A program made the translations under genes and the position numbers. Below the pieces are notes generated by a model, which saw only the letters and a list, made by a program, of their open reading frames with translations, was not told the DNA's origin and ran no database searches. From IMG/VR virus record IMGVR_UViG_3300044974_000806: a stretch of DNA of 64,000 nt. One strand, given 5' to 3'. Of the stretch, positions 30,599 through 61,165 are shown in pieces. How positions within the stretch are numbered: the stretch's first letter is position 1; every line of letters starts with the position of its first letter. The stretch comes from a virus.

Positions 30599-30997
30599 AT
30601 GAAAATCCATGTTGAAGGAGACCCAAAGCTAAAGAACAATTCAGGTAAACAATATTCAATGTTTATCGGAAGATGGCAACCATGGCACAATGGACACAAA
30701 TGGTTAATTGACCAAAGATTAAATGAAGGTAAGAATGTTCTTATTTGTATAAGAGATATTGAACCAAATGAAAAGAATCCATTTACTGCGGAGGAGGTTG
30801 AGGCAAACATTAAACGTGAGTTGTGGCAACTAATTGGAAATGAAAGAGTTAAGGTTATGATTATACCTGACATCGAATCTGTCAACTTTGGTAGGGGAGT
30901 TGGTTATGATATAATTGAACACATACCACCACAAGAAGTTTCAGATATATCTGCAACAAAGATTAGAGAACAATTAAAAGAAGAAGGTAAATTATGA
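30599..30997 (+). CDS. HxGH-motif nucleotidyltransferase, NMNAT / cytidylyltransferase-like.
   Basis: FIGRWQPWHNGH resembles the GRFQPFHxGH motif of archaeal-type NMN adenylyltransferases and cytidylyltransferases. Confidence 0.55.
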   Translation: MKIHVEGDPKLKNNSGKQYSMFIGRWQPWHNGHKWLIDQRLNEGKNVLICIRDIEPNEKNPFTAEEVEANIKRELWQLIGNERVKVMIIPDIESVNFGRGVGYDIIEHIPPQEVSDISATKIREQLKEEGKL

Positions 30998-38178: not shown

Positions 38179-39096
38179 ATGAATGTAATTATGGTAGCTG
38201 AGGACATCAATAAAGATGGCTCATTCAAACAGACAAAGGGGGAAATCATGTGTACGGTTTCCAATCTTGCATTCATAAAACATTATTATCCTGACTTTCA
38301 CACAATACTTTTTGTAGATAAATTTACCAGACCATATTATGAATCGTTCGGTATTACCGAACTGTTCGATGAGGTTAATGATATCATGCTGAACGAACAT
38401 GTTGATATCGATAAAAATGTGTTTTGGGCGGCGGGTAAACTAATGGCTCAAAGAATAACACCAGGACCAACATTAACTATGGATTTGGATTTTTGGGTTC
38501 GAGCTGACATATCAATGTTTGGAATTTTTGATTCAGATATTTCTTGTCTTTGGGTTGAAGAAATAAATGAAAAGTATTACCATAGACATGAGGATGCATT
38601 AAAAAACTCAAACTTAAAAATTGAATGTGATTGGGACCAATATGGAATAAATGTTTCGTTTCTTTATTTAAAAGATGAAGAATTTAAAAATACATATTGT
38701 GATTTATCAATAGAATACATGAAATCAATGTACGGTAAAATACCAAACAATCTTTCATTTGAAGATAAAACAAAATACATTTTATTTGCGGAACAATATC
38801 TTTTGAATCAAATTGCCAAAAAATATGATAAAAAAGTTAAAGTTCTTGTTGATGATTTTTATGACATTACCAATTTGAAACATGTTGAATCCATTGGTGT
38901 TCATATGAAAACTTGTCCAAAATACATTTATCATATGGGTAACCACAAACACGATTACAGAGCAAAGAATAGTTTTGCCCTTGAAGGAATAGAGATATTT
39001 TATAAAACAACCACATCGGTAATAACCGATGATAGGTTTATTAGAGTAATAAATAACATTTATAACAAATCAGAATATGAAGGGTGTTTTTGTTAA
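38179..39096 (+). CDS. Hypothetical protein, paralog A. Possible GT-A-like glycosyltransferase with a DxD motif.
   Basis: A hydrophobic strand followed by DLD (LTMDLDFWV). It shares FWAAGK and MDLDF blocks with the next gene. Confidence 0.45.
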   Translation: MNVIMVAEDINKDGSFKQTKGEIMCTVSNLAFIKHYYPDFHTILFVDKFTRPYYESFGITELFDEVNDIMLNEHVDIDKNVFWAAGKLMAQRITPGPTLTMDLDFWVRADISMFGIFDSDISCLWVEEINEKYYHRHEDALKNSNLKIECDWDQYGINVSFLYLKDEEFKNTYCDLSIEYMKSMYGKIPNNLSFEDKTKYILFAEQYLLNQIAKKYDKKVKVLVDDFYDITNLKHVESIGVHMKTCPKYIYHMGNHKHDYRAKNSFALEGIEIFYKTTTSVITDDRFIRVINNIYNKSEYEGCFC

Positions 39097-40027
39097 TTGG
39101 ACAAAACCATACGAAGAAAGAAAACGTTTGAGGGGGCACGCCTTCAAAATACACAGAGAACAGTTATCTGAGGAATATACAACAACAGATGAAGAGTTGT
39201 TATTCACAATATTATCTGTTGGATACTGGAAAAAATTTAACGGTCCTACCAAACTTTATACGGATAAAAAAGGTTTGGCTTACTACGCCAAGAATAACAT
39301 GTTGGACTTATGGGATGAAATTGATACTCATACCCTGGAGAACTATAAAGACATTGACCCAGCTCAGTTTTGGACATCAGGTAAATCGTATTGTATAGGA
39401 AAAGAACAAGTGCCATTTTGTTTTATGGATTTAGATTTTATGGTTATGGAGAAATTACCTCAATGGGTTTTTGAGTCTGAAGTAACCATACCATACTGGG
39501 AAATACCAAGAGGATATTATTACCCTAATGAGGACCAATACAAAGAAATAAAACATTGGCAACCCCCATCTGACTATTCATATAAGATGATGATTCCAAA
39601 CACATCTTTTTTATACATTGGGAGTGACAAAGTCCAATCCGAATACCTCAAAGACCATCTCGAGGCGGTTGACACCAAAAATGAAATACCTGAATGGTTT
39701 TGGTTAGTTACTGACCAAGGTTTATTTGGACAAGTTCTTAGGAGGTTCAATGTCAAAACTAATACTCTTACCGATAAAGTATTTTTGTCTGACCACGAAG
39801 GTTATGAAGGTAAAGTCGGTGAAGCAACTGGATTTTACTATTTGACCAACGCGGATTATTCCAAAGACAACCTTAAATGGTGGCACGTATGGACAAGGAA
39901 AGTTTTATACAATCAAGACGAAAATGTTAGAGTTTCTGACTGCAAAGAGTTCTACCAACGAATTATGGATGAACTACCTAAGTACAAACACATACTAAAT
40001 AACCCTCGTTTGGTGAGGTATAGATAA
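39077..40027 (+). CDS. Hypothetical protein, paralog B of 38179..39096.
   Basis: FWTSGK and FMDLDFMV align with FWAAGK and TMDLDFWV of the upstream gene. This looks like a tandem duplication. Confidence 0.45.
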   Translation: MKGVFVNWTKPYEERKRLRGHAFKIHREQLSEEYTTTDEELLFTILSVGYWKKFNGPTKLYTDKKGLAYYAKNNMLDLWDEIDTHTLENYKDIDPAQFWTSGKSYCIGKEQVPFCFMDLDFMVMEKLPQWVFESEVTIPYWEIPRGYYYPNEDQYKEIKHWQPPSDYSYKMMIPNTSFLYIGSDKVQSEYLKDHLEAVDTKNEIPEWFWLVTDQGLFGQVLRRFNVKTNTLTDKVFLSDHEGYEGKVGEATGFYYLTNADYSKDNLKWWHVWTRKVLYNQDENVRVSDCKEFYQRIMDELPKYKHILNNPRLVRYR

Positions 40028-40082: not shown

Positions 40083-40622
40083 ATGTTTGATAAGTTAATT
40101 GACCTTATTGTTACGTTCATTAATGACATCCTTCCGTGGAAAATTGTTGACCAATGGGAAGAAGGTGTTCACCTCAGTACAGGTAAATTCAAAAGGGTTG
40201 TAAAACCTGGATTGAATTTCAAAGTACCGTTTTTTGACCAAATTATTACTACACCTGTTATTACCCAAACGGTAAACTTGAAACCACAAACAGTTACATC
40301 TTTTGACGATAAATCAATTGTGTTAACCAGTATTGTTAGGTATCATATTCATGACGTTGAAAAGTTTTTGTTAGGTGTAATGCATGCGAATGACGCACTC
40401 GTTGACACAACTCAAGGAGTTATCCGAGACATAGTTGAAAACACTATGTGGGAAGAGTTGGCTGATTTAGGGTCGATAGTGAAACCTGAAGTTAATGAAC
40501 AAGTATCTAAGTGGGGAATTACTGTAGAACAGATTAGTTTTCCTGACCTTGGAGAAATAAAGACATATCGTATTATGTCTGATGGAGGTAAAGACAACGT
40601 ATTACCAATAAATGGGGACTAA
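40083..40622 (+). CDS. SPFH / Band-7 domain protein.
   Basis: VDQWEEGVHLSTGKFKRVVKPGLNFKVPFFDQIITTPVITQTVNL...VRYHIHDVEKF follows the SPFH pattern V.E.E.GV...GK....L.PGLHF.IPF.D.V. Confidence 0.6.
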   Translation: MFDKLIDLIVTFINDILPWKIVDQWEEGVHLSTGKFKRVVKPGLNFKVPFFDQIITTPVITQTVNLKPQTVTSFDDKSIVLTSIVRYHIHDVEKFLLGVMHANDALVDTTQGVIRDIVENTMWEELADLGSIVKPEVNEQVSKWGITVEQISFPDLGEIKTYRIMSDGGKDNVLPINGD

Positions 40623-48383: not shown

Positions 48384-48691
48384 GGAACCCATTTAAGACG
48401 TGGTCCAAACAAGAGGCTCATTTCACTTCGTGGTTACTTAAAGACGTATTTTGGTGTTTAAAACTACCCTTATTTGCAACTTTAATGGTTATACCAACAA
48501 CATTACTTACACTATACATTCTATTCAAAGAACAGGACAACAGAGATACAAATTTAATACTTTCAAGTTGGGTATTCATGAACATATTTTGGATGTTACA
48601 TGAACTACAGAATTTTCCTTATTGGCCTGTACAGGTATGTATGATTCTCGGAGGACTCGCAGTTATTAATTCTGTAACAAGAAACAAATAG
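48374..48691 (+). CDS. Small multi-pass membrane protein.
   Basis: Three hydrophobic segments. Confidence 0.35.
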   Translation: MGIRNPFKTWSKQEAHFTSWLLKDVFWCLKLPLFATLMVIPTTLLTLYILFKEQDNRDTNLILSSWVFMNIFWMLHELQNFPYWPVQVCMILGGLAVINSVTRNK

Positions 48692-49271
48692 ACCAATCTG
48701 TTATAGGTTTCTTATCAGAGGTATAACCCTGTGAACATATAAAATCGAATGTTGAGGTATCGATACCTTTTTCACTATTAATCTCAATTATTATTACTTT
48801 TGGTTTAACCAAATTAAAAGGAAACTGTCTTATTACTTTGCTATCCAATCCTTCCAAATCAATATTAACTACCTCTAAATCAAACAATTCTCTTTTGGTT
48901 ATAAAGTCAGTAATTGTTTCACAGTCCACCACTTTTTCAACATAAGAATCCAATGGTATTTTTAGTTTACCACAAATCTCTTTTACTTTTTCATAATTAA
49001 AAGTACCTGTTTGATAAAACCATTCAGGGACATTCTTGATTTTCTTTGGTTCATAAAATGTTTTTGAACCTGAAGATGTGTGTATTCCAAGACCAACGAA
49101 TGTATAATCAAAACCAATAAAGTTATCGCGACACTCTGAAAGAACTTCAAAATTTGCATCAACAAAATAACCTGTTAAATTATATTCTAAAATATAGTTT
49201 AGAATTGGGTCATTTGACACACAATCATAACATCCAAAATTAATAAACTTGCCACCTTTTTTAATTTCCAT
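48666..49271 (-). CDS. Hypothetical protein. Weak resemblance to FkbM-family methyltransferases.
   Basis: INFGCYDCVSN and FVDANFE loosely resemble the FkbM DxGANxG region. This is a low-confidence call. Confidence 0.3.
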   Translation of the reverse strand: MEIKKGGKFINFGCYDCVSNDPILNYILEYNLTGYFVDANFEVLSECRDNFIGFDYTFVGLGIHTSSGSKTFYEPKKIKNVPEWFYQTGTFNYEKVKEICGKLKIPLDSYVEKVVDCETITDFITKRELFDLEVVNIDLEGLDSKVIRQFPFNLVKPKVIIIEINSEKGIDTSTFDFICSQGYTSDKKPITDWSICFLLQN

Positions 49272-49497
49272 AATTTAATTATAAAAACATTTCCCTATTA
49301 AAAAAGATTTGTTTAATTTTATAAAAAACAAATATTATGGTAGTGCAACTTAAAGAAATGATTGAGAATAATGAAATTACCGAGATTGAATTGGTTGATT
49401 TTGTCAGAACACTAAAAAAACTCGGAAAGAATAATTTCATGGACAAAAGAAATGTCAAACTAGTAACCAAACACTTTGGTTTTAAAAAGAAAAAAGG

Positions 49498-49926
49498 ATG
49501 GTTAAAGATAGAGAAGGGAAACAAAGTACAACTGTAATAAGAAGAAGGTCTCCAGAATATATCAAGGAGAAAATGATTGAGGATGTGTTGGAACATTTTG
49601 ATTTTGATAAGTGCCAATACGTTATGAAACAATTGAATTGGCAATGGTATGGAAGAGGTATTCCAACCATTGACGAATTAAAATATTCTGCAAGACAAAG
49701 ATTGGAATCTGCAATTGCGGGTGCTTTGGATAGAAAAGATACACTTCCATTAAATTCTTATTATTTTTCTTCAAGCGGAGGATTAAAGGCCACCGCATGG
49801 AGAAACAGATACTGGCATTTAGAAGCCATTAACTTAGAATTCGTCTTGACCGAGTGGGATTCGGATGGAGATTATGTTATAGATAAGAAAAATGAAAACA
49901 AAACTACCGAGCGCAATAATTTATAA
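49498..49926 (+). CDS. Hypothetical protein.
   Basis: 142 aa. Confidence 0.35.
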   Translation: MVKDREGKQSTTVIRRRSPEYIKEKMIEDVLEHFDFDKCQYVMKQLNWQWYGRGIPTIDELKYSARQRLESAIAGALDRKDTLPLNSYYFSSSGGLKATAWRNRYWHLEAINLEFVLTEWDSDGDYVIDKKNENKTTERNNL

Positions 49927-51139
49927 CTTTCATACTGAAGGTGAAATAAAATTACAATCTCAAATTTATTGGGAAGAAGGACTACAAGATGATGTGGTCC
50001 TTTATTCCATTCCATTCAATGAAACCGTTGTTGAGGACTACACCAAATACAGACCTGACTTAATAATTTCTGTTGGAAAGGATATACACATACCTCACAA
50101 CCAACTTAAACAAAGATATGTAAAAGTTGATGAAGGACTTGAAGATTCGGTAATTGCAAATATAATCGCTTGTCAGACCGTTTTTAGAAACTGTAAAGTT
50201 GTTCGACCAAAATTTTCAATATTCACACCAGTATATAAAACAGGCGAAAGAATTCTAAGAACATATCGAGGACTATTAGAACAAAGTTTTTGGGATTGGG
50301 AATGGGTTGTAGTTGACGACTCTCCCGATGACGACACATGGAAACTACTCAAGGAGATAGAATCCAAAGATTACAGAGTTAAGTTACATAGAATTAATCC
50401 AATATCTGGTGGAAATGTTGGTTTAGCCAAACACAGAGCCGCAATGTTATGTGATGGTGATTGGTTAATAGAATTAGACCACGATGATTATCTTACCAAG
50501 CAGGCTCTATCCACATTAGAGGAAGCTATCAACAAGTTCCCTGATGCTAAATTCCTTTACAGTGAATGTTCTGAAATATATGATGACGGTGGATTCAAAA
50601 CCTATGACCATAGATGGGATGGTGATTGGTATGGTAGAGAAGATAATTTCTTTGATTTTGGTTATGCTGGCCATTCACTTGTAAAAGTAGATGATAGAGT
50701 TGTAGTTGCTCATCATTATCCTGATGTTAATCCTTTAACAATACGATTCAATATTAGTATGCCAAACCACGTAAGAGTTTGGGAAAGAAACTTATATCAT
50801 GAGATTGGAGGACATAACAAACATACGCCAGTTGCTGATGACTTTGAAATTATTGTTCGTACATTTTTAAAGACCAAAATGGTCCACATAAAAAAAGTAT
50901 TATACTTTCAATATAACAACAGAAACAGTACTGTGGATAATAATGCAACTGACATAAATAGAAGGGCAAGATTAATCAGAGATTATTACGACAAAGACAT
51001 ACACAACAGAATAATTGAATTAGGATTTGAAGATTGGTGTTGGGATGAAGAAAGACAACACTCACATAAATTTCAAAACCATCAACCCGTCAAAAAATTT
51101 AATGACGAAGAACAAGTAATGAATTACATTTATGAATAA
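49892..51139 (+). CDS. Family 2 glycosyltransferase (GT-A fold).
   Basis: FSIFTPVYKTGERILRTYRGLLEQSFWDWEWVVVDDSPDDDTWKLL follows the GT2 pattern. Confidence 0.65.
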   Translation: MKTKLPSAIIYNFHTEGEIKLQSQIYWEEGLQDDVVLYSIPFNETVVEDYTKYRPDLIISVGKDIHIPHNQLKQRYVKVDEGLEDSVIANIIACQTVFRNCKVVRPKFSIFTPVYKTGERILRTYRGLLEQSFWDWEWVVVDDSPDDDTWKLLKEIESKDYRVKLHRINPISGGNVGLAKHRAAMLCDGDWLIELDHDDYLTKQALSTLEEAINKFPDAKFLYSECSEIYDDGGFKTYDHRWDGDWYGREDNFFDFGYAGHSLVKVDDRVVVAHHYPDVNPLTIRFNISMPNHVRVWERNLYHEIGGHNKHTPVADDFEIIVRTFLKTKMVHIKKVLYFQYNNRNSTVDNNATDINRRARLIRDYYDKDIHNRIIELGFEDWCWDEERQHSHKFQNHQPVKKFNDEEQVMNYIYE

Positions 51140-52289
51140 AAGAGCTAAAATTGTTATGAACTCGATGGTAGGTAATGAAGCCAGAACCATCACAAGAATG
51201 TTAGAATCAGTTGCTCCACACATTGACTATTGGGTAGTTCAATGTAATGGTAATGATGAGACAGAGAAAATAATCAATGATTTCTTTAATGAGAGAAACA
51301 TACCAGGGTTTACCTATCAAGTTGAATGGAATTTCCCTGGATGGAATAGAGACCACACCTTACAAGAATGTTTAAAGGCAGACCACGGATGTGATTGGAT
51401 ATTAAGAATGGATGCCGATGAAACACTTGAAATAGATGAAGATTTTGATTGGGGTATTTTGGATAACACATCAATACAAAGTTTTAATGTTAATGCTTAT
51501 TCCAATGACACAAAGTACTTTAGAACTTGGATGTGGAATGCAAAACTACCATGGTTTTTCCAACATGACAAAAGACATGAAACAATACACTTACCTAATA
51601 TTTCAGAAGATTTTGAAAGAGTTAATTTACCTGAAAGTTTCAGACACAAAGTATCTCAAGATGGTGAAACGTGGTACGTACCAAGAAAGTTCTTGAGAGA
51701 TGCATTGGAACTTGAAATTGACAAAGTTGTTGGATATAAAGTATTAGAAGACCATTACCATCTTTGGTATGTTGCAAAAAGTTATTCTGATTGTTATGGA
51801 AATCCTAACGAATTACCTTTTGGTAAATCACACTCAGATGAATATGCAAGAAGGTCTATATGGTATTTTGAAAAGTTCTTAGAAACCGTACATAATTGGA
51901 GAAACCGTGGCGATGAGATAAAGAGAGAAGACGAGATGGCTTACTATGGGTTAGTTTTAATGGCTATGGCATATAATTTCATTGGTGACTATACAAAATC
52001 TGATGAATGTTTTACTAACGCTGGATTATTCTGCGGGGATAGAAATGAACATTTATTGAATTGGATTATCATATTAGAAAAGAATGGAAGATATGAAGAA
52101 ATTATACCTATTATTGATATAATGGAAGAACCATCAAGAGTTAATCCTTTTCCTAATAAAACTTTTTTAATTGAAAATAGGGCTTACTATAACAGTAGTA
52201 GTTTCCTTAAAGAATTTAGAGAGAGAATTGAAAAAAGGTTAACTGAGCATGTTGTTAACATGACAAGCGTTAAGTTTGATTTTAAATGA
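51132..52289 (+). CDS. Glycosyltransferase-like protein (GT2-like N-terminal domain).
   Basis: IVMNSMVGNEARTITRMLESVAPHIDYWVVQCNGNDETEKII resembles the GT2 N-terminal beta-alpha-beta region with the DxD-equivalent region. Confidence 0.5.
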   Translation: MNKRAKIVMNSMVGNEARTITRMLESVAPHIDYWVVQCNGNDETEKIINDFFNERNIPGFTYQVEWNFPGWNRDHTLQECLKADHGCDWILRMDADETLEIDEDFDWGILDNTSIQSFNVNAYSNDTKYFRTWMWNAKLPWFFQHDKRHETIHLPNISEDFERVNLPESFRHKVSQDGETWYVPRKFLRDALELEIDKVVGYKVLEDHYHLWYVAKSYSDCYGNPNELPFGKSHSDEYARRSIWYFEKFLETVHNWRNRGDEIKREDEMAYYGLVLMAMAYNFIGDYTKSDECFTNAGLFCGDRNEHLLNWIIILEKNGRYEEIIPIIDIMEEPSRVNPFPNKTFLIENRAYYNSSSFLKEFRERIEKRLTEHVVNMTSVKFDFK

Positions 52290-53392
52290 TTCTTTTGAGA
52301 AAAAAACCTTATGATTATTTAATAGTCGGGGCTGGAGTATTTGGTTCCGTCTGTGCTTACGAACTCAATAAAAGAGGTAAGAAGTGTATTGTCATCGATA
52401 AACGAAATGTTATCGGTGGCAATTGTTACACAGAAAACGTTGATGGAATTCACGTACACAAATACGGTGCTCACATATTCCATACAAACGACAAATACCT
52501 TTGGGACTACGTAAATCAATTTGCGGAGTTCAGACAATATACCCACAACGTAATTGCAAACTACAAAGGGGAAATGTATACACTTCCCTTCAACATGTGG
52601 ACATTCAATCAACTTTGGGATGTTAATGAGCCTGAGAAGGCCAAACAAATTCTTGAGGGCCAAACATTTTCAGGTACACCATCAAATTTAGAGGAACAAG
52701 CAATATCCATGGTTGGTAAAGATATCTATGAGAAGTTAATCAAAGGATATACAGAAAAACAATGGAACAAATTGTGTTCAGAGTTACCCGCATCAATCAT
52801 CAAAAGACTCCCAGTAAGATTTACGTGGGATAGCAATTATTTCAATGACAAGTATACTGGGATGCCAATAGGTGGTTACACCCAAATATTTGAAAAAATG
52901 TTAGAGGATACCAATGTAATGTTGAATGCTGATTATTTTAAAGATAGAGAATTTTACGATTCTTTGGCTGAAAAAGTAATATACACGGGACCTATAGATA
53001 AATTTTTTGATTACAAACACGGAGAGTTAGATTACAGAAGTTTGACTTGGGAAACTAAAAAATTAGACAAAGATAATTTCCAAGGAGTTCCTGTAGTAAA
53101 TTATACTGACTCTGAAACCCCATTCACACGTATTTTGGAACACAAATGGTTTGACCCTAACAATCAAAAAGGGACTATTATAAGTTACGAATATCCTGCC
53201 GAGTATGATGGTACCAACGAACCTTATTACCCCGTTAGAGACACTAAAAACACCCTTATTTACGAGAAATACCGTGAGATGACAAAAGAGTTAGACAACT
53301 ACATTTTTGGAGGTAGATTGGGGTCTTATTCCTACTTCGATATGCATCAAGTAATAGCTCAAGCGTTAAAAACTGTAAAAGATATCGTTTAA
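52286..53392 (+). CDS. glf: UDP-galactopyranose mutase.
   Basis: FAD-binding YDYLIVGAGVFGSVCAYEL...VIDKRNVIGGNCYTE...HKYGAHIFHTND is characteristic of Glf. The length is about 368 aa. Confidence 0.85.
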   Translation: MILLRKKPYDYLIVGAGVFGSVCAYELNKRGKKCIVIDKRNVIGGNCYTENVDGIHVHKYGAHIFHTNDKYLWDYVNQFAEFRQYTHNVIANYKGEMYTLPFNMWTFNQLWDVNEPEKAKQILEGQTFSGTPSNLEEQAISMVGKDIYEKLIKGYTEKQWNKLCSELPASIIKRLPVRFTWDSNYFNDKYTGMPIGGYTQIFEKMLEDTNVMLNADYFKDREFYDSLAEKVIYTGPIDKFFDYKHGELDYRSLTWETKKLDKDNFQGVPVVNYTDSETPFTRILEHKWFDPNNQKGTIISYEYPAEYDGTNEPYYPVRDTKNTLIYEKYREMTKELDNYIFGGRLGSYSYFDMHQVIAQALKTVKDIV

Positions 53393-53404
53393 TGATATTT
53401 ATAC

Positions 53405-54388
53405 TTGATGAAAGTATGTATTAAAAATTCAAAGACTGAAATAACAGAAGAACAATTAGAAGTTATATCTTCATTTGTTAAATTCCTACAAAGCCAAGTT
53501 CCGTTATCTTCTGATATTCAGGTTGTTTTAACCAATAATCAAAAGACAACAGGAACAACAGGTATAAGAATGCCTGGCAGTAAAATCTACGTCCTTACAA
53601 AAGGAAGAATGTTGGTTGACATTCTAAGAACTCTATCACATGAATGGGTCCACGAATTCCAACATCAAAAGTTAGGGTTAGATGATAATGCCAAAATCCA
53701 AAACATCGGCGGGCCCGAAGAAAACATGTGTAATATCTTATCAGGAATATTCATTAAGAAATTCGACAAACAAAACCCTGATTACAAAACAACAATCTAC
53801 GAACAAAAAATACTTAATGAGTTATCGCCAAACTCAAGCGGAGTCAGTGATGTTTTATCGTTACTATCTAAAAAACCTGAACTTGTTAAACAATTAGGAT
53901 TTAGAAGTTTAGACGCTGTTCAATATTTTATTGATGGAGCCAGTTATGATGACTTTGATGAATTAAAAGATGATATTGAAAAGTTTTTGAAAGAAAAAGA
54001 ACAATACTTTGAAAAGGAAATGGATGAAATACAAAGAGCGGTTCAAGAACTATCAAGAGACGAAGGGTTAGATATTTCGGTTAAAGATGTTGTTGAATCT
54101 TTTAGAAATTCAAATGAAGTCACACTTACTGATGACATATGGTCAAAGTTAGAAAACACAGAATCCAATCAAGTCAAAAAAGGAGAAATGAAAAAGGTTG
54201 TTGAAATTGCAAAAAAATACGACAAGACATCTCCTTACATATTAAAAAAATCATTACTTAAAGATGATTATGAGAGGCCTCTTATCCTTAAGTTTGGGGA
54301 CAGATATCATCTTGTTGCTGGTAATACAAGACTATGTACTGCATCTGCAATGGGAATGAAACCGCAAGTACTTATTGCGGAAATATAA
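53405..54388 (+). CDS. Hypothetical protein with an HExxH motif and a possible ParB-like nuclease C-terminus.
   Basis: TLSHEWVHEFQHQ (HEWVH) and C-terminal HLVAGNTRLCTASAMG (compare ParB-N GxxR). Confidence 0.35.
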   Translation: MMKVCIKNSKTEITEEQLEVISSFVKFLQSQVPLSSDIQVVLTNNQKTTGTTGIRMPGSKIYVLTKGRMLVDILRTLSHEWVHEFQHQKLGLDDNAKIQNIGGPEENMCNILSGIFIKKFDKQNPDYKTTIYEQKILNELSPNSSGVSDVLSLLSKKPELVKQLGFRSLDAVQYFIDGASYDDFDELKDDIEKFLKEKEQYFEKEMDEIQRAVQELSRDEGLDISVKDVVESFRNSNEVTLTDDIWSKLENTESNQVKKGEMKKVVEIAKKYDKTSPYILKKSLLKDDYERPLILKFGDRYHLVAGNTRLCTASAMGMKPQVLIAEI

Positions 54389-54393
54389 TCTTT

Positions 54394-54591
54394 ATGGACA
54401 AACAAAATAGAATCAACGGAATATACATTCCACTAAAAGTTGGGGATATTATCTACACAGGAAGATTTAAAAACAAAAAAACAACAGTTAAAACAATTGG
54501 TGTGGATGAATACGGTATGCCAACTATCAATGGTAAACGAGCATTTACCTTTAGAATTCTTCCATCAACTCCTCCAAAACCTTCAAAATAA
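54394..54591 (+). CDS. Small hypothetical protein. The start has been trimmed to MDKQNR.
   Basis: The upstream part of the tracked ORF overlaps the previous gene. Confidence 0.3.
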   Translation: MDKQNRINGIYIPLKVGDIIYTGRFKNKKTTVKTIGVDEYGMPTINGKRAFTFRILPSTPPKPSK

Positions 54592-54648
54592 TTCCAATTC
54601 TTTTTTTATCGAAAAAAATAATTTATATTTGCGTAAAATTATGATACG

Positions 54649-55059
54649 ATGAGAATAGGGATTACCGCAAGTTGTTTTGATTTATTACATGCTGGACACA
54701 TATTGATGTTAAAAGAAGCTAAATCAGTTTGTGACCATCTTATTGTTGCGTTACAGGTTGACCCAACAATCGATAGACCAAACAAAAATAAACCAATACA
54801 ATCTTTTTATGAAAGATGGGTACAAGTATCTGCGGTCAAATATGTGGACGAGATAATACCGTATATCACCGAAAGTGAATTACTAACTATTCTACAAAAC
54901 TATGATATAGATGTTAGAATTTTAGGAGAAGAATATGAAACGAAACCATTCACAGGGAATAACTTGGACATGGATTATTACTTCAACAAAAGAACACACG
55001 AATATAGTTCAACTGAATTAAAAAAAAGAATAATTAATGGAACATCAGAGCTCAAATAA
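54649..55059 (+). CDS. Cytidylyltransferase-like nucleotidyltransferase (TagD / RfaE domain II-like).
   Basis: GITASCFDLLHAGHILMLKEA (compare GTFDLLHxGH) and ERWVQVSAVKYVDEII (compare R...V.....VD.V). Confidence 0.65.
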   Translation: MRIGITASCFDLLHAGHILMLKEAKSVCDHLIVALQVDPTIDRPNKNKPIQSFYERWVQVSAVKYVDEIIPYITESELLTILQNYDIDVRILGEEYETKPFTGNNLDMDYYFNKRTHEYSSTELKKRIINGTSELK

Positions 55060-55432
55060 AAATAAGTCAAAGAACGGAACCGCTTTCGAGAAGGAATTCA
55101 CCGACGCAACGGGGATTACAAAAATACGAAAAAAAGACAAACCAAGGTTCAAAAACTCTCACGGGTTATCACAAATCGTAGATTTTGATTTTATTACTAC
55201 AATTGATGAGATTATGGTATGTGTCGACGTTTCGACTACTTTTAGAAGTGACAGATTGAAACAGAAATCATATAACGCATTGATGATGAAACAGAACATC
55301 AAACAAGAATGTAAGTTTTATATGGTGGTTAGGTCTTTAACTGAAAAAGGTAAGACCAAGAAACCTGTGTTGATTGAAGGTATTGATGGTGTTATGGAGA
55401 TTGGGGATTTCCTTAAACTATTAACTAAATAA

Positions 55433-56080
55433 TTATTTATTTTCCTTGAACTCATAGAAGAAATTATCTTCATCACCTGCCGACCACTTAGTACCTTTCT
55501 CACAAATAAACTCTTTGGTTGAAACTTTGAAATCAGGTTTGTTAACTCCAAAAGGTGTTAGAGATTGGTCAAAGAACAAGATTCTATTATTGGGTTGGGC
55601 GGCGAATTGTCCGTTGTCCAACTTGATAATATTAAATGACTTATGTTCGTTAGGGGTTTCAGACAAAGATATGTTTATTTCATTTGGTTCCGAACTACAT
55701 GAATCGATTGTGAACATGTATTGTCCTTTGTGGTATTTTCTATCCTTCATGTAGACCATAACGTCTAACTTAGATAATGTTTTCTTTTCGATTACTGAAA
55801 TATTATAAGAAAAGGCATCCCAAATTTCCAAAAAATCTAATGGTAATTGTTCCTCATCATTTATTTCTGTTTTCCAAACATATGCTGAGATTGGTAATTT
55901 ATCATACAATGCCCCATAGTTTGTTAGTAAAGATTCAATATAAAGGGCTTTACCTTTAACTGATTTTATACTAATCCAATAACAAGGTTCAAACTCACCG
56001 TGACCTTTCTGTAAATCATACAGATATTCTTTTTTAATATAACATTGTACTGGGGGTAAATTAGCAACTAAATAACTCAT
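55433..56080 (-). CDS. Hypothetical protein.
   Basis: 215 aa. Confidence 0.45.
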   Translation of the reverse strand: MSYLVANLPPVQCYIKKEYLYDLQKGHGEFEPCYWISIKSVKGKALYIESLLTNYGALYDKLPISAYVWKTEINDEEQLPLDFLEIWDAFSYNISVIEKKTLSKLDVMVYMKDRKYHKGQYMFTIDSCSSEPNEINISLSETPNEHKSFNIIKLDNGQFAAQPNNRILFFDQSLTPFGVNKPDFKVSTKEFICEKGTKWSAGDEDNFFYEFKENK

Positions 56081-56092
56081 ACCTATAAATAC

Positions 56093-56356
56093 TTATTCAA
56101 TTTCTTTAATCTCAAGTTTATAGGTATTTTTAAACCAAGCAGCAACAACTGTAAGTAATACGTTATCAATATATCCTTTACCGAACTTCTTATACAACGT
56201 ATATTTTGCTTCATCAGACACAAACATAACGCCTGTCTTAATATCAAATAAAAAGAATGCGTTGGCCCAAGTTTGCTCCTCTCTCGAATAATCCATATAC
56301 GGGAAACCAAACTTATCATCGATGAACTTAACGATATGTTTTTCAATTGTTGTCAT
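56093..56356 (-). CDS. Hypothetical small protein.
   Basis: It was chosen over the overlapping alternative-frame ORF 56083..56346 because of its more protein-like composition. Confidence 0.35.
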   Translation of the reverse strand: MTTIEKHIVKFIDDKFGFPYMDYSREEQTWANAFFLFDIKTGVMFVSDEAKYTLYKKFGKGYIDNVLLTVVAAWFKNTYKLEIKEIE

Positions 56357-56391
56357 AAGACAAATATAAGAAAAAATAAGGGTGGGGTAAA

Positions 56392-56712
56392 TTACATATC
56401 AGAATCTGTAACAGAAAGGGAAAACTTATCAGAGAACTTTTCCTGAAAGTACCTGGTAAACAACTCATTTGTCGTCTTATAAGATATTGGCATCATATTC
56501 ATAAAAGACCAATAATAACTTCTCTGAATTAAAAATCCGTAATCGTTGTATTGTATGATAGGATTACCTTCTGAAGTAACCCACTCAACATCATCCTCAT
56601 GTGTTTGCCACCATGGTTTATCTCTATAAGTTAACTCAGAGAACTTATCATCCACTATTCTTTTGAATAACTTATACAGCCTCTCTTGGTCTATTTCATA
56701 TGTTTGTCCCAT
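56392..56712 (-). CDS. Hypothetical protein.
   Basis: 106 aa, Trp/Tyr-rich. Confidence 0.4.
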   Translation of the reverse strand: MGQTYEIDQERLYKLFKRIVDDKFSELTYRDKPWWQTHEDDVEWVTSEGNPIIQYNDYGFLIQRSYYWSFMNMMPISYKTTNELFTRYFQEKFSDKFSLSVTDSDM

Positions 56713-56752
56713 AATCTATAAATAGTTTAAGGTAAACATTATATTTATCAAT

Positions 56753-57661
56753 ATGAAATACGAGATACCTGAAGAGCGTTTATTGGGACTTATAGACAAA
56801 TACATGGAAATTACTTATCCCAATTCTGTTAAAGTTCAACTTGCACCTCCTGGTGGAAACGTCAGTATAACTTCATTGTTTAAGAATTTAGAAGATGCTG
56901 AGAACGGAACCGCAGATGAACATGACGTTCTTATTCACAAGATGGATGCTTACGGTATGTCCAATATCAATATCAACAAAGAGTTTGCAATTTCGGTTAA
57001 AGCCATGTTTGGTGGTATCAAAAACGTTAAAGGTTTATTAGAGAAATGGTTTGATAACAAACCTATAGACGTGGACCTTTTGGGTTCTAACAAACAAGAA
57101 CAGAACGAGGGGGAGATAACCGAAAGATGTTGGAAAGGATATACTCAAAAAGGAATGAAGACAATGTTTGGTAAAAGATATCCAAACTGTGTTAAGATAA
57201 AGAAGAAGAGTGTAAATGAATCCAAGATGATGGATTATTTAAAACAATTTTTATCAGGGGAATTTCTCGACAAATATAAAGAAGAAAAAGGGAGAAAAGA
57301 GTTCCAAAGGATGGTTGACATGGTATACAAAATAACCGCCAAAAATAATCCAATAGAAGGAATGGTCGGGGTTCTTGTTGGTAACATTGATAAAAGCATG
57401 TGGGGACAAAGTTTCAATGACCCAAATAGTGTTGGTGCAAGATGGGATTTTACTGTGATTCTTAGACCATTATTTACAAATTACAATCCAAATAACGAAA
57501 GTGACTATGGTGAAAGAGTGCTGAATTTTGAAAAAGAGTTTAATGAAAATGCAAGGGGAATGGGATTTGAACTTATATCACCAATACAACATGAAAGAGT
57601 AAAAAGTTATAGGGTTAAATTTGAATGGTCTTCCCGTTTGGATGTTAATCCTATTGATTAA
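56753..57661 (+). CDS. Hypothetical protein.
   Basis: 302 aa. It is followed by a terminator. Confidence 0.45.
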   Translation: MKYEIPEERLLGLIDKYMEITYPNSVKVQLAPPGGNVSITSLFKNLEDAENGTADEHDVLIHKMDAYGMSNININKEFAISVKAMFGGIKNVKGLLEKWFDNKPIDVDLLGSNKQEQNEGEITERCWKGYTQKGMKTMFGKRYPNCVKIKKKSVNESKMMDYLKQFLSGEFLDKYKEEKGRKEFQRMVDMVYKITAKNNPIEGMVGVLVGNIDKSMWGQSFNDPNSVGARWDFTVILRPLFTNYNPNNESDYGERVLNFEKEFNENARGMGFELISPIQHERVKSYRVKFEWSSRLDVNPID

Positions 57662-57664
57662 ATA

Positions 57665-57692
57665 AACCCTCACTTAACGGTGGGGGTTTTAT
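57665..57692 (+). terminator. Rho-independent terminator of the CCCTCAC family.
   Basis: CCCTCAC-ttaacg-GTGGGGG followed by TTTT. Confidence 0.55.
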
Positions 57693-57740
57693 ATTTATAA
57701 TAAAACAAATTATAATAAATCAAAAAAATAAAGAATAATT

Positions 57741-58118
57741 ATGTGGAACGTAAACGTAACAATTAAGAATAATACCGATTATACAATTACTACGGTAAAT
57801 AACTATTCACCTCAAGAGGTGATACAACCTGACGGTGGTGAATTCAGTTGGAACACAACTGAACCAAACAATTCAACATCAATTAGATTTTGGAAAGTAC
57901 CTAGTCAATGGTACATGCAGGGTGGAGTAAGTTTTGGACCTGAAGCGGGTGTTTATGTTGACAGAGGATGGATGGCAGACAATGACCAAACAATCTCTAT
58001 GACGGCAGTTGCGAATGGTAAGTCATGGACTCAAACGGCAAACGGTGGTGAAACATTATTGGCGTGGAATGAATTTGAATCAGGTGGTGACATATCACTA
58101 ACCTTCGACAAACAATAA
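57741..58118 (+). CDS. Hypothetical protein. A single-gene unit bracketed by two related terminators.
   Basis: 125 aa, Trp/Asn/Thr-rich. It could be a beta-rich virion or decoration protein. Confidence 0.45.
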   Translation: MWNVNVTIKNNTDYTITTVNNYSPQEVIQPDGGEFSWNTTEPNNSTSIRFWKVPSQWYMQGGVSFGPEAGVYVDRGWMADNDQTISMTAVANGKSWTQTANGGETLLAWNEFESGGDISLTFDKQ

Positions 58119-58123
58119 ATTAG

Positions 58124-58152
58124 AACCCTCACATAACGGTGAGGGTTTTTTA
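58124..58152 (+). terminator. Rho-independent terminator of the CCCTCAC family.
   Basis: AACCCTCAC-ataacg-GTGAGGGTT followed by TTTTT. Confidence 0.6.
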
Positions 58153-58189
58153 TTGATTAAATCTTATTCATTTTTTATATTTAAAAAAC

Positions 58190-59158
58190 ATGAAAGATTT
58201 GATTTTTATTACTGCATATTGCCCAACAACTGAACAGGTTGAGAGATTGGAAAAATGTCTTGATTCTGTTATTAAAACAGGACACCATATTTTACTAATA
58301 TCACATACTCATATTCCAATTCACATTCAACAAAAATGTCAGTATTACTTTTATGATTATCTAAACGAAACCTCAGATGATTATAATTTATTTGGGTTTA
58401 ATAATTATACCTCAAATGATTTTATTATTCAATCAAAGTTTTTTCAAAAGAGTTTTTATGGGTTCGCAATTTATAGAATGTTCTCAATTGCTAGTCAAAT
58501 TGCAATAAACTTCGGATATAAAAAATTACATCATATAGAATACGATTGTGAATTATTAGACAAAACTATAATTGATGAAAATAGTTCACTTTTAGAAAGT
58601 TATGATTCAGTATTATATACTAATGATGGAACTCCTGATGGATTTCTTTTTGGTTCATTAAAATCTTTCAAAGTTGATTCTTTACCTGAATTTTTCAAAA
58701 CTTATAACAAAGATTTTATTGAGAATGAAATGAAAAAGATTGAACCAACTCATTTAGAGTTTTTAACGAAAAAACTTTTCATAAATTCAGGTAATGTTTT
58801 ATTTAAGAATGACAACGATTTATGTAAACAAGGATTCAGTAAAGGTCCCAAATTTTATGCCATAGGAGTACACTATACTTTATATTACAACCCGATTAAT
58901 AATATGATAAACATTTTTTATCTGTCTATGAAATCACATGAAGAAAATATTGTAATTATAGTGAATCATGATAAAATTGTTCGATTCAAAGCATTACCAA
59001 ACCAATGGCATATTCAAAGATTGGGACTACTTGACGAAGTATATAATGTTAGAATAGACAACTCAAAACAATGTTTATATGAAAAATCTTTCGATGAAGA
59101 ATTCAAAAAAGTGTTCATAAATAAATCTTACATCACTTATTATGAAAAAAATAATTAA
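58190..59158 (+). CDS. Hypothetical protein in the glycan cluster.
   Basis: 322 aa with no clear motif. Confidence 0.45.
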   Translation: MKDLIFITAYCPTTEQVERLEKCLDSVIKTGHHILLISHTHIPIHIQQKCQYYFYDYLNETSDDYNLFGFNNYTSNDFIIQSKFFQKSFYGFAIYRMFSIASQIAINFGYKKLHHIEYDCELLDKTIIDENSSLLESYDSVLYTNDGTPDGFLFGSLKSFKVDSLPEFFKTYNKDFIENEMKKIEPTHLEFLTKKLFINSGNVLFKNDNDLCKQGFSKGPKFYAIGVHYTLYYNPINNMINIFYLSMKSHEENIVIIVNHDKIVRFKALPNQWHIQRLGLLDEVYNVRIDNSKQCLYEKSFDEEFKKVFINKSYITYYEKNN

Positions 59159-59966
59159 TTTCACACCTACGGGAACACAAACCACAAGGGACAATTCTTT
59201 AGCTCCATTATTGCCAAGTGAAATAATTGAGGAAGTTCATCAAGCAAATGAATTGGGAATTTCAATTGTGCACTTACATGCGAGAGATGAAGATACAAAT
59301 AACACTTACAAGAAAGAAGTATATCAAAAGATTATAGAAGGGATAAAGAAACATTGTCCTGAACTATTAATTTGTGTTTCGTTGACGGGAAGAAACTTTC
59401 CTGAATTAGAACAAAGGTCAGAGGTATTGCAATTATTACCTGACATGGGTTCATTAACAATGTCATCATTAAACTTCCCATCAGGGACATCAATTAACCA
59501 ACCTGATATGATACTATCTTTAATCAAAGAGATGGATAAGTATGGGGTCCAACCTGAGATAGAATGTTTTGACGCAGGCATGTTAAACTACACAAATTAC
59601 ATTATTTCAAAGAACATATTGAAACCACCATATCACATCAATGTTATATTAGGAAACATATACAATGGTCAATGTGATTTCGGAACTTTGGCAACAATCA
59701 AATCAAACCTACCAACAAATTCATTTACTTGTTTAGGTGGAATAGGTTCCCAACAGATAAAGAGTACCACGTATGGGTTATTAGATTTTGATGGAGTTAG
59801 AATCGGGCTTGAGGATAATCTATATTACAAAGATAAGGAAAAGACAACAAACATAAAATTATTAAAACGAGTACATAGAATAATGGATGAATTAGATATG
59901 ACTCAATATACATCAGACGAATTAAGACAAAAAGGGTATGGGAACAAAATTATTAATAATAGGTAA
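59142..59966 (+). CDS. BKACE-family (DUF849) beta-keto acid cleavage enzyme-like protein.
   Basis: INFTPTGTQTT...PLLPSEIIEEVHQANELGISIVHLHARDEDT...VSLTGRN matches the DUF849 N-terminal pattern (INF.PTG, IVHLHARD, GGR). Confidence 0.6.
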   Translation: MKKIINFTPTGTQTTRDNSLAPLLPSEIIEEVHQANELGISIVHLHARDEDTNNTYKKEVYQKIIEGIKKHCPELLICVSLTGRNFPELEQRSEVLQLLPDMGSLTMSSLNFPSGTSINQPDMILSLIKEMDKYGVQPEIECFDAGMLNYTNYIISKNILKPPYHINVILGNIYNGQCDFGTLATIKSNLPTNSFTCLGGIGSQQIKSTTYGLLDFDGVRIGLEDNLYYKDKEKTTNIKLLKRVHRIMDELDMTQYTSDELRQKGYGNKIINNR

Positions 59967-60579
59967 GGGGGATAATATTATAACCATGGTTTTGGATAAT
60001 CTATATTCCAATAACATCAAACCCAAAGTTACGGTTTATAATAATCTTAATCTACCAATACTTAATTCATTCCAACATGATGATTTCAAAATAGAAATTC
60101 TACCTGAGGTTGACATGAATGAATTTGATGTGTGTGTTCTTGGTGTTTACAAACCAAAGTTAAAGACTAAGATAATTAAAGAATTTGGACTAACCACAGA
60201 TAAATTTATCAATGTAATACACGACGGGTTAGACATTTCTAAAATGAGTACAATCGGAAACGGTTTATTAATTAATTCAAAAGTTTCAATTGCTGCACAT
60301 ACAACAATAGGAAATTTTGTAACAATCAACAGACATGTTTCTATAGGTCATCACACAGTTATTGGTGACTATTGTTCTATTAATCCTGGTACAAACATTG
60401 CTGGCAATGTAAGGATAGGTGAAGGAACAACAATAGGTATGGGGGTAAATATAATAGACGGTATAAAGATAGGGAAAAATACCATAATAGGTGCGGGTTC
60501 TGTAGTAACGAAGGACATTCCTGATAATGTTATTGCTTACGGTTCACCTTGTAAAATAATTAGAGACAATGAAGCATAA
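59938..60579 (+). CDS. Left-handed beta-helix (hexapeptide-repeat) sugar acyltransferase, NeuD/PglD-like.
   Basis: N-terminal Rossmann-like LLIIGKGDNIITMVLD, then hexapeptide repeats (IGNFVTINRHVSIGHHTVIGDYCSINPGTNIAGNVRIGEGTTIGMGVNI). Confidence 0.7.
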   Translation: MGTKLLIIGKGDNIITMVLDNLYSNNIKPKVTVYNNLNLPILNSFQHDDFKIEILPEVDMNEFDVCVLGVYKPKLKTKIIKEFGLTTDKFINVIHDGLDISKMSTIGNGLLINSKVSIAAHTTIGNFVTINRHVSIGHHTVIGDYCSINPGTNIAGNVRIGEGTTIGMGVNIIDGIKIGKNTIIGAGSVVTKDIPDNVIAYGSPCKIIRDNEA

Positions 60580-61165
60580 TCCATATAAAATAGTGGAGAT
60601 GTTCGAAGAGGAGATTGCCGAATATACGGGAGCATCATATGCAGTTGCATTAGACAACTGTACTGACGCATTGTTCTTATGTTGTACCTACTTAAAGGTG
60701 GAAGATGTTACGATACCTAAGAAAACTTATTTGTCGGTTCCACAAGCGGTAATGGCGTCAGGAGGCAAAGTATCATTTGACGACACGGAATGGAAAGGAC
60801 TATACCAATTAAAACCATATCCGATATACGATTCGGCAAGAAGATTTACTTCAGGGATGTATATTCCAAATACATTTATGTGTCTATCGTTCCATCCCAA
60901 AAAGATATTAAAGATGAGAAAAGGCGGAATGATTCTAACTGATGACAAAGATGCTTATTCTTGGTTTAAGAAAGCAAGACACGAAGGTAGAGATGAAATT
61001 CCATACACGCAAGACAACATTAAATTCATGGGGTGGAACATGTACATGACACCACCTGACGCTGCTGAAGGGCTATGGATGATGACATCTATGCCGAAAC
61101 ACAATGAAGATACAATAGAAGATTATCCTGACTTAAGGAGAAACGATTTATATAAGGATATGTAA
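60569..61165 (+). CDS. DegT/DnrJ/EryC1-like aminotransferase fragment. Only about half the normal length.
   Basis: MFEEEIAEYTGASYAVALDNCTDALFLCCTYL...VTIPKKTYLSVPQAVMASGGKVSFDD resembles the DegT N-terminal region, but the ORF is only 198 aa. Confidence 0.4.
   Translation: MKHNPYKIVEMFEEEIAEYTGASYAVALDNCTDALFLCCTYLKVEDVTIPKKTYLSVPQAVMASGGKVSFDDTEWKGLYQLKPYPIYDSARRFTSGMYIPNTFMCLSFHPKKILKMRKGGMILTDDKDAYSWFKKARHEGRDEIPYTQDNIKFMGWNMYMTPPDAAEGLWMMTSMPKHNEDTIEDYPDLRRNDLYKDM

Follow-up and report, generated by a model that had tools for sequence, protein, structure and literature searches.

Why should a phage carry a BKACE (DUF849) enzyme among genes for sugar transfer, and to what would the product of such genes be attached? 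Both questions are raised by the interval from 48666 to 61165 (about 12.5 kb) of a 64,000-nucleotide (nt) stretch of IMG/VR virus record IMGVR_UViG_3300044974_000806, hereafter the window. An earlier note had described this interval as one coherent block for glycan synthesis and had named seven genes in it. The seven open reading frames (ORFs) are all found in the ORF list at the starts it gave, and their sugar-active domain calls were upheld by Pfam and NCBIfam (Table 1). The single block, in contrast, came apart: a variable cassette of two glycosyltransferase (GT) genes and a UDP-galactopyranose mutase gene (glf) is parted from a conserved operon that holds the BKACE gene. Because this trio is rare among relatives, because its flanks abut in one of them (L008) and because a minus-strand gene triplet and two hairpins lie in between, the interval appears to consist of two independent sugar-gene sets, A (49892-55059 plus 48666-49271) and B (58190-61165). 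We propose, with a probability of roughly 0.55, that set B makes and transfers an N-acylated amino sugar, that set A is a separate system, and that the acceptors are most likely virion proteins.

A conserved operon around a BKACE enzyme

When IMG/VR was scanned with the BKACE protein, 41 viral loci (62-90% identity) were obtained, on contigs of up to 335 kb, and near-identical contigs were seen in several JGI and ENA freshwater metagenomes. These loci, together with a collagen-like window ORF that matches tail-fibre PHROGs, an Amidase_2 lysin and a match to phrog_3704, bear out the earlier claim that the element is a phage and place it, as far as gene content tells, in a freshwater jumbo-phage lineage. 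The window also encodes a DUF932 protein and a tRNA-Met. When the whole block was compared by megablast with 50,697 deposited phage records, zero matches were obtained, and no cultured reference for the lineage was found. A eukaryotic giant virus had been considered in view of the low G+C content and the collagen-like and sugar genes; this candidate was dropped on account of the overlapping, operon-style genes, the PHROG matches and the Amidase_2 gene, and also because the Bacteroidota affinities described below and the phage contigs of IMG/VR speak against it.

Set B comprises genes for a GT-A-fold protein, the BKACE, a left-handed beta-helix acyltransferase (LbH) and a short DegT-like protein that we call mini-DegT, and these overlap successively by 17, 29 and 11 nt. 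Presence and absence across the 41 loci were read from a tblastn matrix of all window ORFs. BKACE and LbH were both present in every locus, down to 62% identity; mini-DegT was found in 31, including all 12 loci that form a diverged clade (contig ends may account for part of the absences), and the GT-A-like gene in 29, with none in those 12. In the diverged clade, BKACE-LbH-mini-DegT is found amid several soluble GT2 genes, a GNAT gene and sometimes a sulfotransferase gene, with PhoH on one side of the whole cluster and a PolB-type exonuclease gene or a dUTPase-like one on the other. On the overlaps and this distribution, set B is a translationally coupled, lineage-conserved four-gene operon.

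The assignment of the second gene as a BKACE was confirmed by a family match over its full length (Table 1) and by its similarity to the Kce structure 2y7d (E = 8e-31). In 12 phage homologs (61-90% identity), residues H44, H46, E139/E141, D144 and E224-D225-N226 do not vary, and the motifs align to HLH and GLEDN of 3no5, meaning that His-x-His, ExE and GLEDN are intact. Judging from the Kce structure, we take the His-x-His pair and the Glu to bind zinc and the acidic residues to be catalytic. The scores remained below the cut-offs of the characterised isofunctional subfamilies (186 against 382 bits for Kce, 165 against 350 for the 3-oxoadipate enzyme and 108 against 430 for the 3,5-dioxohexanoate enzyme). 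The reaction of the family turns a beta-keto acid and acetyl-CoA into acetoacetate and an acyl-CoA, and each active site holds one Zn (PMC11961710). A tblastn search with the BKACE protein gave zero matches in the 50,697 deposited phage records, in agreement with the earlier remark that its context is unusual. This context does not seem accidental, since the pairing with an acyltransferase is conserved in phages and bacteria.

Eighty bacterial loci, mostly from Bacteroidota, were recovered when a single genome of each prokaryotic species was scanned, the closest BKACEs being those of Pseudarcicella (59%), an uncultured Cytophagales metagenome-assembled genome (MAG; 58%), Aquirufa (57%) and Emticicia (55%). 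An LbH gene was found in 63 of the 80 loci, at 300 nt or less from BKACE in 54, and a GNAT acetyltransferase takes its position in 9 Flavobacteriaceae loci. Among the 46 loci with at least 5 kb on each side, at least 45 had LbH or GNAT; their other recurrent neighbours were full-length DegT (18 loci), GT2 enzymes with 2-3 transmembrane segments (19), PMT_2/ArnT-like GT-C enzymes (13) and the 3,4-ketoisomerase FdtA (8). That LbH and GNAT, two unrelated folds, should both stand beside BKACE is expected if an acyl-CoA is the common intermediate. An exhaustive search of 1.84 billion representative proteins returned 1830 BKACE relatives; nine GNAT::BKACE fusions occur among the best 150 of them (GNAT confirmed against YpeA), and one protein, P0366, 47% identical to the phage BKACE, is a fusion with a full-length DegT. 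Adjacency and fusions together appear to connect BKACE with amino-sugar synthesis and with an N-acyltransferase that depends on CoA. In two other proteins (P0485 and P0501, of 742 and 753 residues), a distant BKACE (31%) is fused to domains that look by eye like class-I/II aminotransferases, from their NPTG and SKxxGxxGWR motifs, and the coupling of BKACE with aminotransferases may extend beyond the sugar context.

The cassettes closest to set B are similarly ordered. That of Aquirufa reads BKACE, LbH, mini-DegT, a GT2-like gene of 240 residues and an Amj-type flippase; that of Emticicia reads BKACE, LbH, the 240-residue GT2-like gene, a sulfotransferase and an Amj-type flippase; Pseudarcicella has BKACE-LbH-GT2-like with its sulfotransferase gene on the other strand, and in this genus no Amj was found. 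The Aquirufa cassette is surrounded by housekeeping genes (glgB-like, pyrB, pyrF) and is for this reason chromosomal rather than part of a prophage. In the diverged phage clade, the gene next after LbH is a homolog of the bacterial GT2-like gene. Set B therefore seems related to a Bacteroidota chromosomal cassette in which BKACE and acyltransferase are combined with DegT, FdtA, an ArnC-like GT2 and either a flippase of the Amj type or an ArnT-like GT-C. Only its soluble half is retained by the phages: in the 41 loci, neither a GT-C nor a membrane-spanning GT2 was found up to 10 kb from the operon.

The third gene had been called a NeuD/PglD-like sugar acyltransferase, and this holds for its hexapeptide repeats (Table 1) and for its closest PDB match, the perosamine N-acetyltransferase PerB (4ea7, E = 3e-23). 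A His of the phage protein is aligned to that of the PerB 'DHD' motif, which we take to be the catalytic base. The match to TIGR03570 (NeuD/PglB/VioB) falls slightly short, with 143.8 bits for a cut-off of 160.8. The protein that opens the operon gave no Pfam, PHROG or PDB sequence match and no sequence-level relatives outside the lineage, and its 619 homologs are all devoid of a Pfam domain. With an AlphaFold2 model of this protein (pLDDT 76.9), the top Foldseek matches were all GT-A enzymes or nucleoside diphosphate (NDP)-sugar transferases (E = 2e-6, TM-score 0.32-0.44), and on this model it is a probable glycosyltransferase. The idea that it could be a diverged copy of the GT2-like gene found after LbH in other clades was rejected (hhalign probability 0.1%).

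The last gene of the operon had been described as a truncated DegT, with the advice to look for a frameshift or a pseudogene. It is indeed short, 198 residues against about 370, yet it is no fragment but a conserved gene of its own: its relatives are equally short (about 190-224 residues), align end to end down to 38% identity and conserve the Asp-x-Ala and Lys residues, which rules out a decayed or frameshifted DegT. A single-sequence search returned 3044 clusters, the best 120 of which are 187-212 residues long, and a profile search returned at least 8000, with 204-224 residues among the matches listed. D88, A90, S107, F108 and K112 are invariant across 12 diverse sequences (alignment A1); in an alignment of 41 sequences (A3), D88, S107, F108 and K112 remain invariant and A90 is conserved in at least 90%. 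K112 is aligned to a Lys of PDB entry 9bgp, the one replaced by Ala in the mutant 9bgr. Mini-DegT has both the SFxxxK Lys and the upstream Asp-x-Ala of the DegT family, D88-x-A90 presumably having the position and spacing of the family motif. The complete fold type I, with a large domain built on a seven-stranded sheet and a C-terminal small domain (360-400 residues), is not found, the PDB alignment omitting chain residues 112-174 and everything past about 250. The AlphaFold2 model has a pLDDT of 84.2 and a pTM of 0.84, with the Lys loop below a pLDDT of 50. The top 50 PDB matches listed by Foldseek were full-size chains (357-442 residues), nearly all DegT-type sugar aminotransferases, and no solved structure of mini-DegT size was among them; TM-scores were 0.61-0.67 on the query, 0.34-0.38 on targets of 357-393 residues and 0.30-0.32 on three longer chains. 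Foldseek against viral models added nothing. We have filed mini-DegT as a reduced relative, not as a canonical member of the DegT family. Homologs are found in cultured phages: in Flavobacterium phage immuto, as gp98 adjoining the LbH protein gp99, together with six genes annotated as glycosyltransferases, an NDP-sugar epimerase gene and another, full-length DegT, and in Synechococcus phage S-SCSM2R, as ORF305 amid GTs, where it was interpreted as an AHBA-synthase 'antibiotic' gene (PMC12801897).

These data bear on one of the rival explanations, namely that the BKACE is an unrelated auxiliary metabolic gene (for lysine fermentation, carnitine or ketone bodies) that happens to lie near sugar genes, the DegT being in decay. 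Such a view could invoke the best curated matches, Kce and 3-oxoadipate:acetyl-CoA acetyltransferase, and the half-length DegT ORF. However, the BKACE scores far under the equivalog cut-offs (186 against 382 bits at best), no lysine-fermentation neighbours were seen among the recurrent families of the 80 bacterial loci (tblastn and clustering), the adjacency to an acyltransferase is near-universal and fusions with GNAT and DegT exist, and mini-DegT is full-length down to 38% identity with invariant motif residues in a family of at least 8000 clusters. The explanation is already contradicted, and we regard it as highly improbable.

The strain-variable cassette and the genes between the two sets

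In set A, Glf was confirmed beyond its Pfam domain by an equivalog-level match that takes in the N-terminus for FAD binding (TIGR00031, 418 bits for a cut-off of 303.75), and homologs are present in 90 phage records. Of the two GT2 enzymes claimed earlier, the first has a GT-A domain above the Pfam threshold as well as a DxD motif, and it weakly matches GtrB-like O-antigen-conversion PHROGs. The second is below the threshold (Table 1) and is only a probable member; in the PDB it comes closest to GmaR, a protein O-GlcNAc transferase with TPRs (E = 0.049), to which its DADE motif aligns, and its gene overlaps the adjoining ones by 8 and 4 nt. The TagD/RfaE-like cytidylyltransferase could be retained at the superfamily level only (PF01467, TIGR00125, HAGH): TagD and RfaE are its nearest families, but neither equivalog cut-off was reached (68 against 165 bits for TIGR01518 and 63 against 181 for TIGR02199, respectively). 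The FkbM-like ORF at the edge of the set scored under the NCBIfam cut-offs and had no tblastn homolog in the 41 related loci.

The GT2-GT2-Glf trio is confined to three of these loci (L010, L016 and L044): Glf is present in all three, the GT2-like gene in L016 and L044, and the GT2 gene in L044 only. For the cytidylyltransferase gene, L010 and L016 were the sole loci. The L008 locus has the homolog of ORF 49498 directly followed by that of ORF 53405, a clean indel of the trio that L044 retains. Given this distribution and the indel, set A is a strain-variable accessory cassette, cleanly absent from close relatives. In some strains, Glf would provide UDP-galactofuranose; the GT2 and the GT2-like/TPR protein would transfer sugars, the TagD/RfaE-like nucleotidyltransferase would activate a polyol- or sugar-phosphate, and the FkbM-like enzyme may methylate.

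At least nine ORFs of the interval have no sugar signature, including 53405, 54334, 55037, 56753, 57741 and the three minus-strand ones at 55433-56712, and no transmembrane segment was found in any ORF of the block. ORF 53405, between Glf and the cytidylyltransferase, had no match in Pfam, NCBIfam, PHROG or PDB. It carries an HEWVH (HExxH) motif and a C-terminal 'LVAGNTRL' that is ParB/Srx-like by eye. ParB-like activators of phage DNA dioxygenases have been described (PMC13229309, 2026); such a role was rejected for this ORF, with no Pfam or PDB support for it and no Tet_JBP match among the scanned window ORFs.

The two sets are separated by the minus-strand triplet and then by two plus-strand genes, each of which ends in a terminator-like hairpin. 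The first ORF of the triplet (55433-56080, 215 residues) matches phrog_3704 over its full length at 309 bits. This family carries the PHROGs label 'ferredoxin', which looks doubtful for this protein because it has no Pfam match and no obvious cysteine cluster. For ORF 56753, a PDB sequence search gave nothing usable. The hairpins flank a gene of 125 residues (57741-58118), for which the only match was a weak one to DUF4352, and mark the upstream limit of the conserved operon. Their 11-bp stems are nearly identical (AACCCTCAC...GTGAGGGTT), and the second can also be read as a minus-strand terminator; the arrangement could point to strong expression of the small gene in between, or to a regulatory element that is repeated.

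Table 1. Features of the interval, in order of position (aa, amino acids).
Feature	Coordinates	Strand	Evidence and remarks
FkbM-family methyltransferase-like ORF, 201 aa	48666-49271	-	PF05050 26.2 bits (cut-off 22.7), weak
Family-2 glycosyltransferase, 415 aa, soluble	49892-51139	+	PF00535 58.7 bits; DDS and DHD motifs; no transmembrane segment
Probable GT-A/GT2-like transferase with helical C-terminal half, 385 aa	51132-52289	+	PF00535 19.6 bits, below 23.3
UDP-galactopyranose mutase (Glf), 368 aa	52286-53392	+	PF03275 258.7 bits; NAD_binding_8 84 bits
ORF without sugar signature, 327 aa	53405-54388	+	Downstream edge of the GT2-GT2-Glf indel
Small cytidylyl/adenylyltransferase, TagD/RfaE-domain-II-like, 136 aa	54649-55059	+	PF01467 50.8 bits; HAGH motif
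Three phage ORFs dividing the interval, no sugar role	55433-56712	-	55433-56080 matches phrog_3704; other two without family match
Two terminator-like hairpins	57664-57689, 58122-58149	+	Each with 11-bp stem, 5 GC pairs, then T run
GT-A-fold (nucleotide-diphospho-sugar transferase-like) protein, probable, 322 aa	58190-59158	+	AlphaFold2 model and Foldseek; opens the operon
BKACE (DUF849) enzyme, 274 aa	59142-59966	+	PF05853 209.6 bits (cut-off 24.8), residues 3-263
Probable NeuD/PglD/VioB-type left-handed beta-helix sugar N-acyltransferase (LbH), 213 aa	59938-60579	+	Hexapep 76.5 bits
Mini-DegT, reduced sugar-aminotransferase-fold protein, 198 aa	60569-61165	+	PF01041 73 bits in two stretches

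Proposed pathway, acceptor and host

A four-step pathway can be drawn for set B. Mini-DegT would aminate a host-supplied NDP-keto-deoxyhexose; the BKACE, by the reaction of its family, would turn a beta-keto acid and acetyl-CoA into acetoacetate and a non-acetyl acyl-CoA; LbH would move the acyl group onto the sugar amine, as the conserved adjacency and the fusions suggest; and the GT-A-fold protein would pass the product to the acceptor, this last being the weakest of the enzymatic steps. Since the phages have lost or never had the membrane parts of the bacterial systems, a cytoplasmic acceptor is favoured. Virion glycosylation has precedent in mycobacteriophages. Because of this precedent, and because the GTs are soluble, one of them is weakly GmaR-like and the GT set is strain-variable, we rank the phage's own virion proteins first, as the most likely acceptors in what is the least certain step of the scheme; the host envelope, suggested by the ancestry of the cassette, comes second and DNA third. 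Glycosylation of the collagen-like fibres, an idea put forward earlier, is compatible with virion proteins as acceptors; no linkage was found that supports it, and no gene of the block connects it with the collagen or hydroxylase genes, which are 25 kb away.

Several points weigh against this scheme. The case for the synthesis of an acylated amino sugar is computational throughout. Neither a 4,6-dehydratase nor a ketoisomerase is encoded in the phage block, so that the NDP-keto-sugar has to come from the host. Mini-DegT is devoid of about 55 internal residues, from the third strand to Asp-x-Ala, and of the entire C-terminal domain, so that it may not bind pyridoxal 5'-phosphate (PLP) and may not be an aminotransferase. 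As the BKACE is below every curated equivalog cut-off, its substrate and acyl group are not fixed by the family. The GT-A call rests on TM-scores of 0.32-0.44, with which a nucleotidyltransferase is equally possible. Nothing ties the products to virion proteins, and the bacterial homolog cassettes act on the envelope. Finally, the host assignment given below rests on a single gene tree without bootstrap support.

The envelope is the target in the first of two alternatives that keep a sugar role. Here the same enzymology would feed a modified NDP-sugar and UDP-galactofuranose to the lipid-carrier machinery of the host, and the O-antigen or capsule would be altered during infection, blocking superinfection or grazing. 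The bacterial homolog cassettes, with their ArnC/GtrB-like GT2 of 2-3 transmembrane segments, ArnT-like GT-C and Amj flippase, speak for it, as do the weak resemblance of the window GT2 to GtrB-like PHROGs, the presence in three related loci of ORFs of 112-122 residues with four transmembrane segments that are possibly GtrA-like, and the like interpretation of 'cell wall synthesis and modification' clusters in large cyanophages (PMC12801897). However, no lipid-carrier GT, flippase, polymerase or GT-C was found, either in the block of the window or, for the 41 loci, up to 10 kb from the operon, and soluble GTs of its own would be superfluous to a phage that only supplied precursors. Lysogenic conversion in particular is without support, as neither integrase nor repressor was found among the scanned window ORFs. 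We consider this alternative rather unlikely. The ORFs with four hydrophobic segments are located a few kb upstream of the operon, at 3739-4077 in L015, 8623-8961 in L017 and 6914-7282 in L027.

In the second alternative, the GTs and the acyl-amino-sugar module would glycosylate a hydroxymethylated base of the phage DNA and thereby evade restriction, as in T-even phages and in clusters linked to 5mYOX. All the enzymes are soluble, the operon of the diverged clade is flanked by a PolB-type exonuclease, a dUTPase-like gene and PhoH, the window encodes two DNA methylases and two 2-oxoglutarate (2OG)-Fe(II) oxygenases, and phage GT-A enzymes are known to attach diverse glycans to 5-hydroxymethylcytosine (bioRxiv 10.1101/2023.12.21.572611). 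The known clusters, however, are centred on 5mYOX/TET with a C5-methyltransferase or a ThyS homolog (same source), and the scanned window ORFs gave no match to Tet_JBP, ThyS or C5-methyltransferases. The oxygenases match the prolyl-hydroxylase-type PF13640 and not Tet_JBP, one of the methylases is of the N6/N4 type, the bacterial homolog cassettes are chromosomal envelope systems, and an N-acyl amino sugar on DNA is not mentioned in the DNA-modification papers compared. We hold DNA to be an improbable target.

As for the host, the phage BKACEs are placed beside a Cytophagales group in a rough neighbour-joining tree without bootstrap, which suggests gene exchange with Cytophagales and a probable host in that order. 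The same kinship is indicated by the common order BKACE-LbH-GT2-like. A Bacteroidota bacterium, probably Cytophagales-like, is the likely host. Bacteroidota hosts were also predicted for the freshwater 'moraphages', which have four core glycosyltransferase orthogroups (PMC12619734, 2025). Three short contigs (1.6-5.5 kb; L050, L051 and L055) from species-representative MAGs of GTDB, assigned to Bacteroidales, Saprospiraceae and Prolixibacteraceae, encode BKACEs 56-75% and mini-DegTs 70-81% identical to those of the phage, and L051 falls inside the phage clade of the BKACE tree; all three have the look of phage fragments that were binned with bacterial MAGs by mistake. A near-identical contig that reaches past the right end of the window (L004) encodes a SET-domain protein (PF00856, 129 residues, 8106-8495) about 7 kb downstream of the operon.

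Elsewhere in the window, three large consecutive collagen-like ORFs (16103-22771) have a G+C content of 46-49%, compared with about 32% elsewhere; the first, the sole one scanned, is that which matches tail-fibre PHROGs. Two oxygenases of the prolyl-hydroxylase type (PF13640; 29841-30596 and 40633-41790) are encoded 7-18 kb downstream of them. Next to one of these are a second small gene of the CTP_transf_like type (30599) and, at 30994, the gene for an N6/N4 DNA methylase; the former, which had been cited as an HxGH nucleotidyltransferase, scores 27.9 bits. The 'DxD paralogs' that had been linked to the sugar genes (38179-39096 and 39077-40027) match Pfam DUF6734 (32 and 27 bits), a domain of unknown function, and are followed by an SPFH/Band-7 protein gene (40083-40622). 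A full-length cobalamin adenosyltransferase (35154-35714; PF01923, 187.6 bits) adjoins a DHH-family protein (33724-35142), and we know of no precedent for a phage-encoded cobalamin adenosyltransferase.

Meaning of the findings and comparison with known systems

Sugar clusters in large aquatic phages, phage Glf, and pathways that combine DegT with LbH were already known. What seems new, as far as the searched collections and the literature show, is a BKACE in any phage, and, as far as the literature shows, the BKACE-acyltransferase-(DegT) association in bacteria; within the same limits, it also seems new to treat the half-size DegT as a family in its own right, and a large one. Literature searches for BKACE/DUF849 with phage or glycosyltransferase found nothing relevant, and no sugar or acyltransferase context is described in the BKACE literature consulted. 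A wider proposal, to which we would give somewhat less than an even chance, is that BKACE, a CoA-dependent acyltransferase and (mini-)DegT form an undescribed route, common to freshwater Bacteroidota and their jumbo phages, in which an enzyme hitherto seen in catabolism provides a rare acyl-CoA for the N-acylation of an amino sugar, and in which mini-DegT is a functional minimal PLP sugar aminotransferase whose family abounds in phages and Bacteroidota and is at present mislabelled as WecE or AHBA synthase.

If this is true, BKACE would gain an anabolic, glycan-building role, and a genetic handle would be at hand on the non-acetyl N-acyl groups of surface amino sugars, which concern serotype, phage receptors and immune recognition. 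Mini-DegT would then be the smallest fold-type-I sugar aminotransferase, and thousands of environmental sequences of its family are now annotated as ordinary transaminases. The abundant freshwater jumbo-phage lineage holds set B as a core and swaps its glycosyltransferases, which suggests diversifying selection on the phage-made glycan. As the closest cellular cassettes are those of Aquirufa, Pseudarcicella and Emticicia, the host range can be tested.

Compared with known systems, the clusters of large aquatic phages (S-SCSM2R, immuto and the 'moraphages') and the virion glycosylation systems of mycobacteriophages share with the present phage multiple soluble GTs, a TagD-like protein and NDP-sugar enzymes, and those of S-SCSM2R and immuto include mini-DegT homologs. 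In contrast, the records of the large aquatic phages gave no BKACE by tblastn; their function is likewise a prediction. The three-component Arn and Gtr systems (ArnB/ArnC/ArnT; GtrA/GtrB/Gtr-GT-C) resemble the bacterial cassettes, which join DegT, a GT2 with 2-3 transmembrane segments and a GT-C or flippase, whereas the phage has none of the membrane components and the BKACE and acyltransferase step is foreign to both. With the BKACE/DUF849 family (Kce, dehydrocarnitine and 3-oxoadipate enzymes), the phage protein shares a full-length TIM-barrel match and the invariant motifs; its context, however, appears biosynthetic and glycan-related, not catabolic. The PglD/PerB/VioB/QdtC pathways for NDP-amino sugars (for example dTDP-Fuc3NAc/Qui3NAc, by FdtA-FdtB-FdtC) are similar in that a NeuD/PglB/VioB-like LbH stands beside a DegT fold, to which the bacterial relatives of set B add FdtA and a full-length DegT. 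Set B differs from these pathways in that the phage DegT is half-size, in that the phage block has no dehydratase or isomerase, and in that a BKACE is inserted as the obligate partner of the acyltransferase, the acyl donor being probably other than acetyl-CoA.

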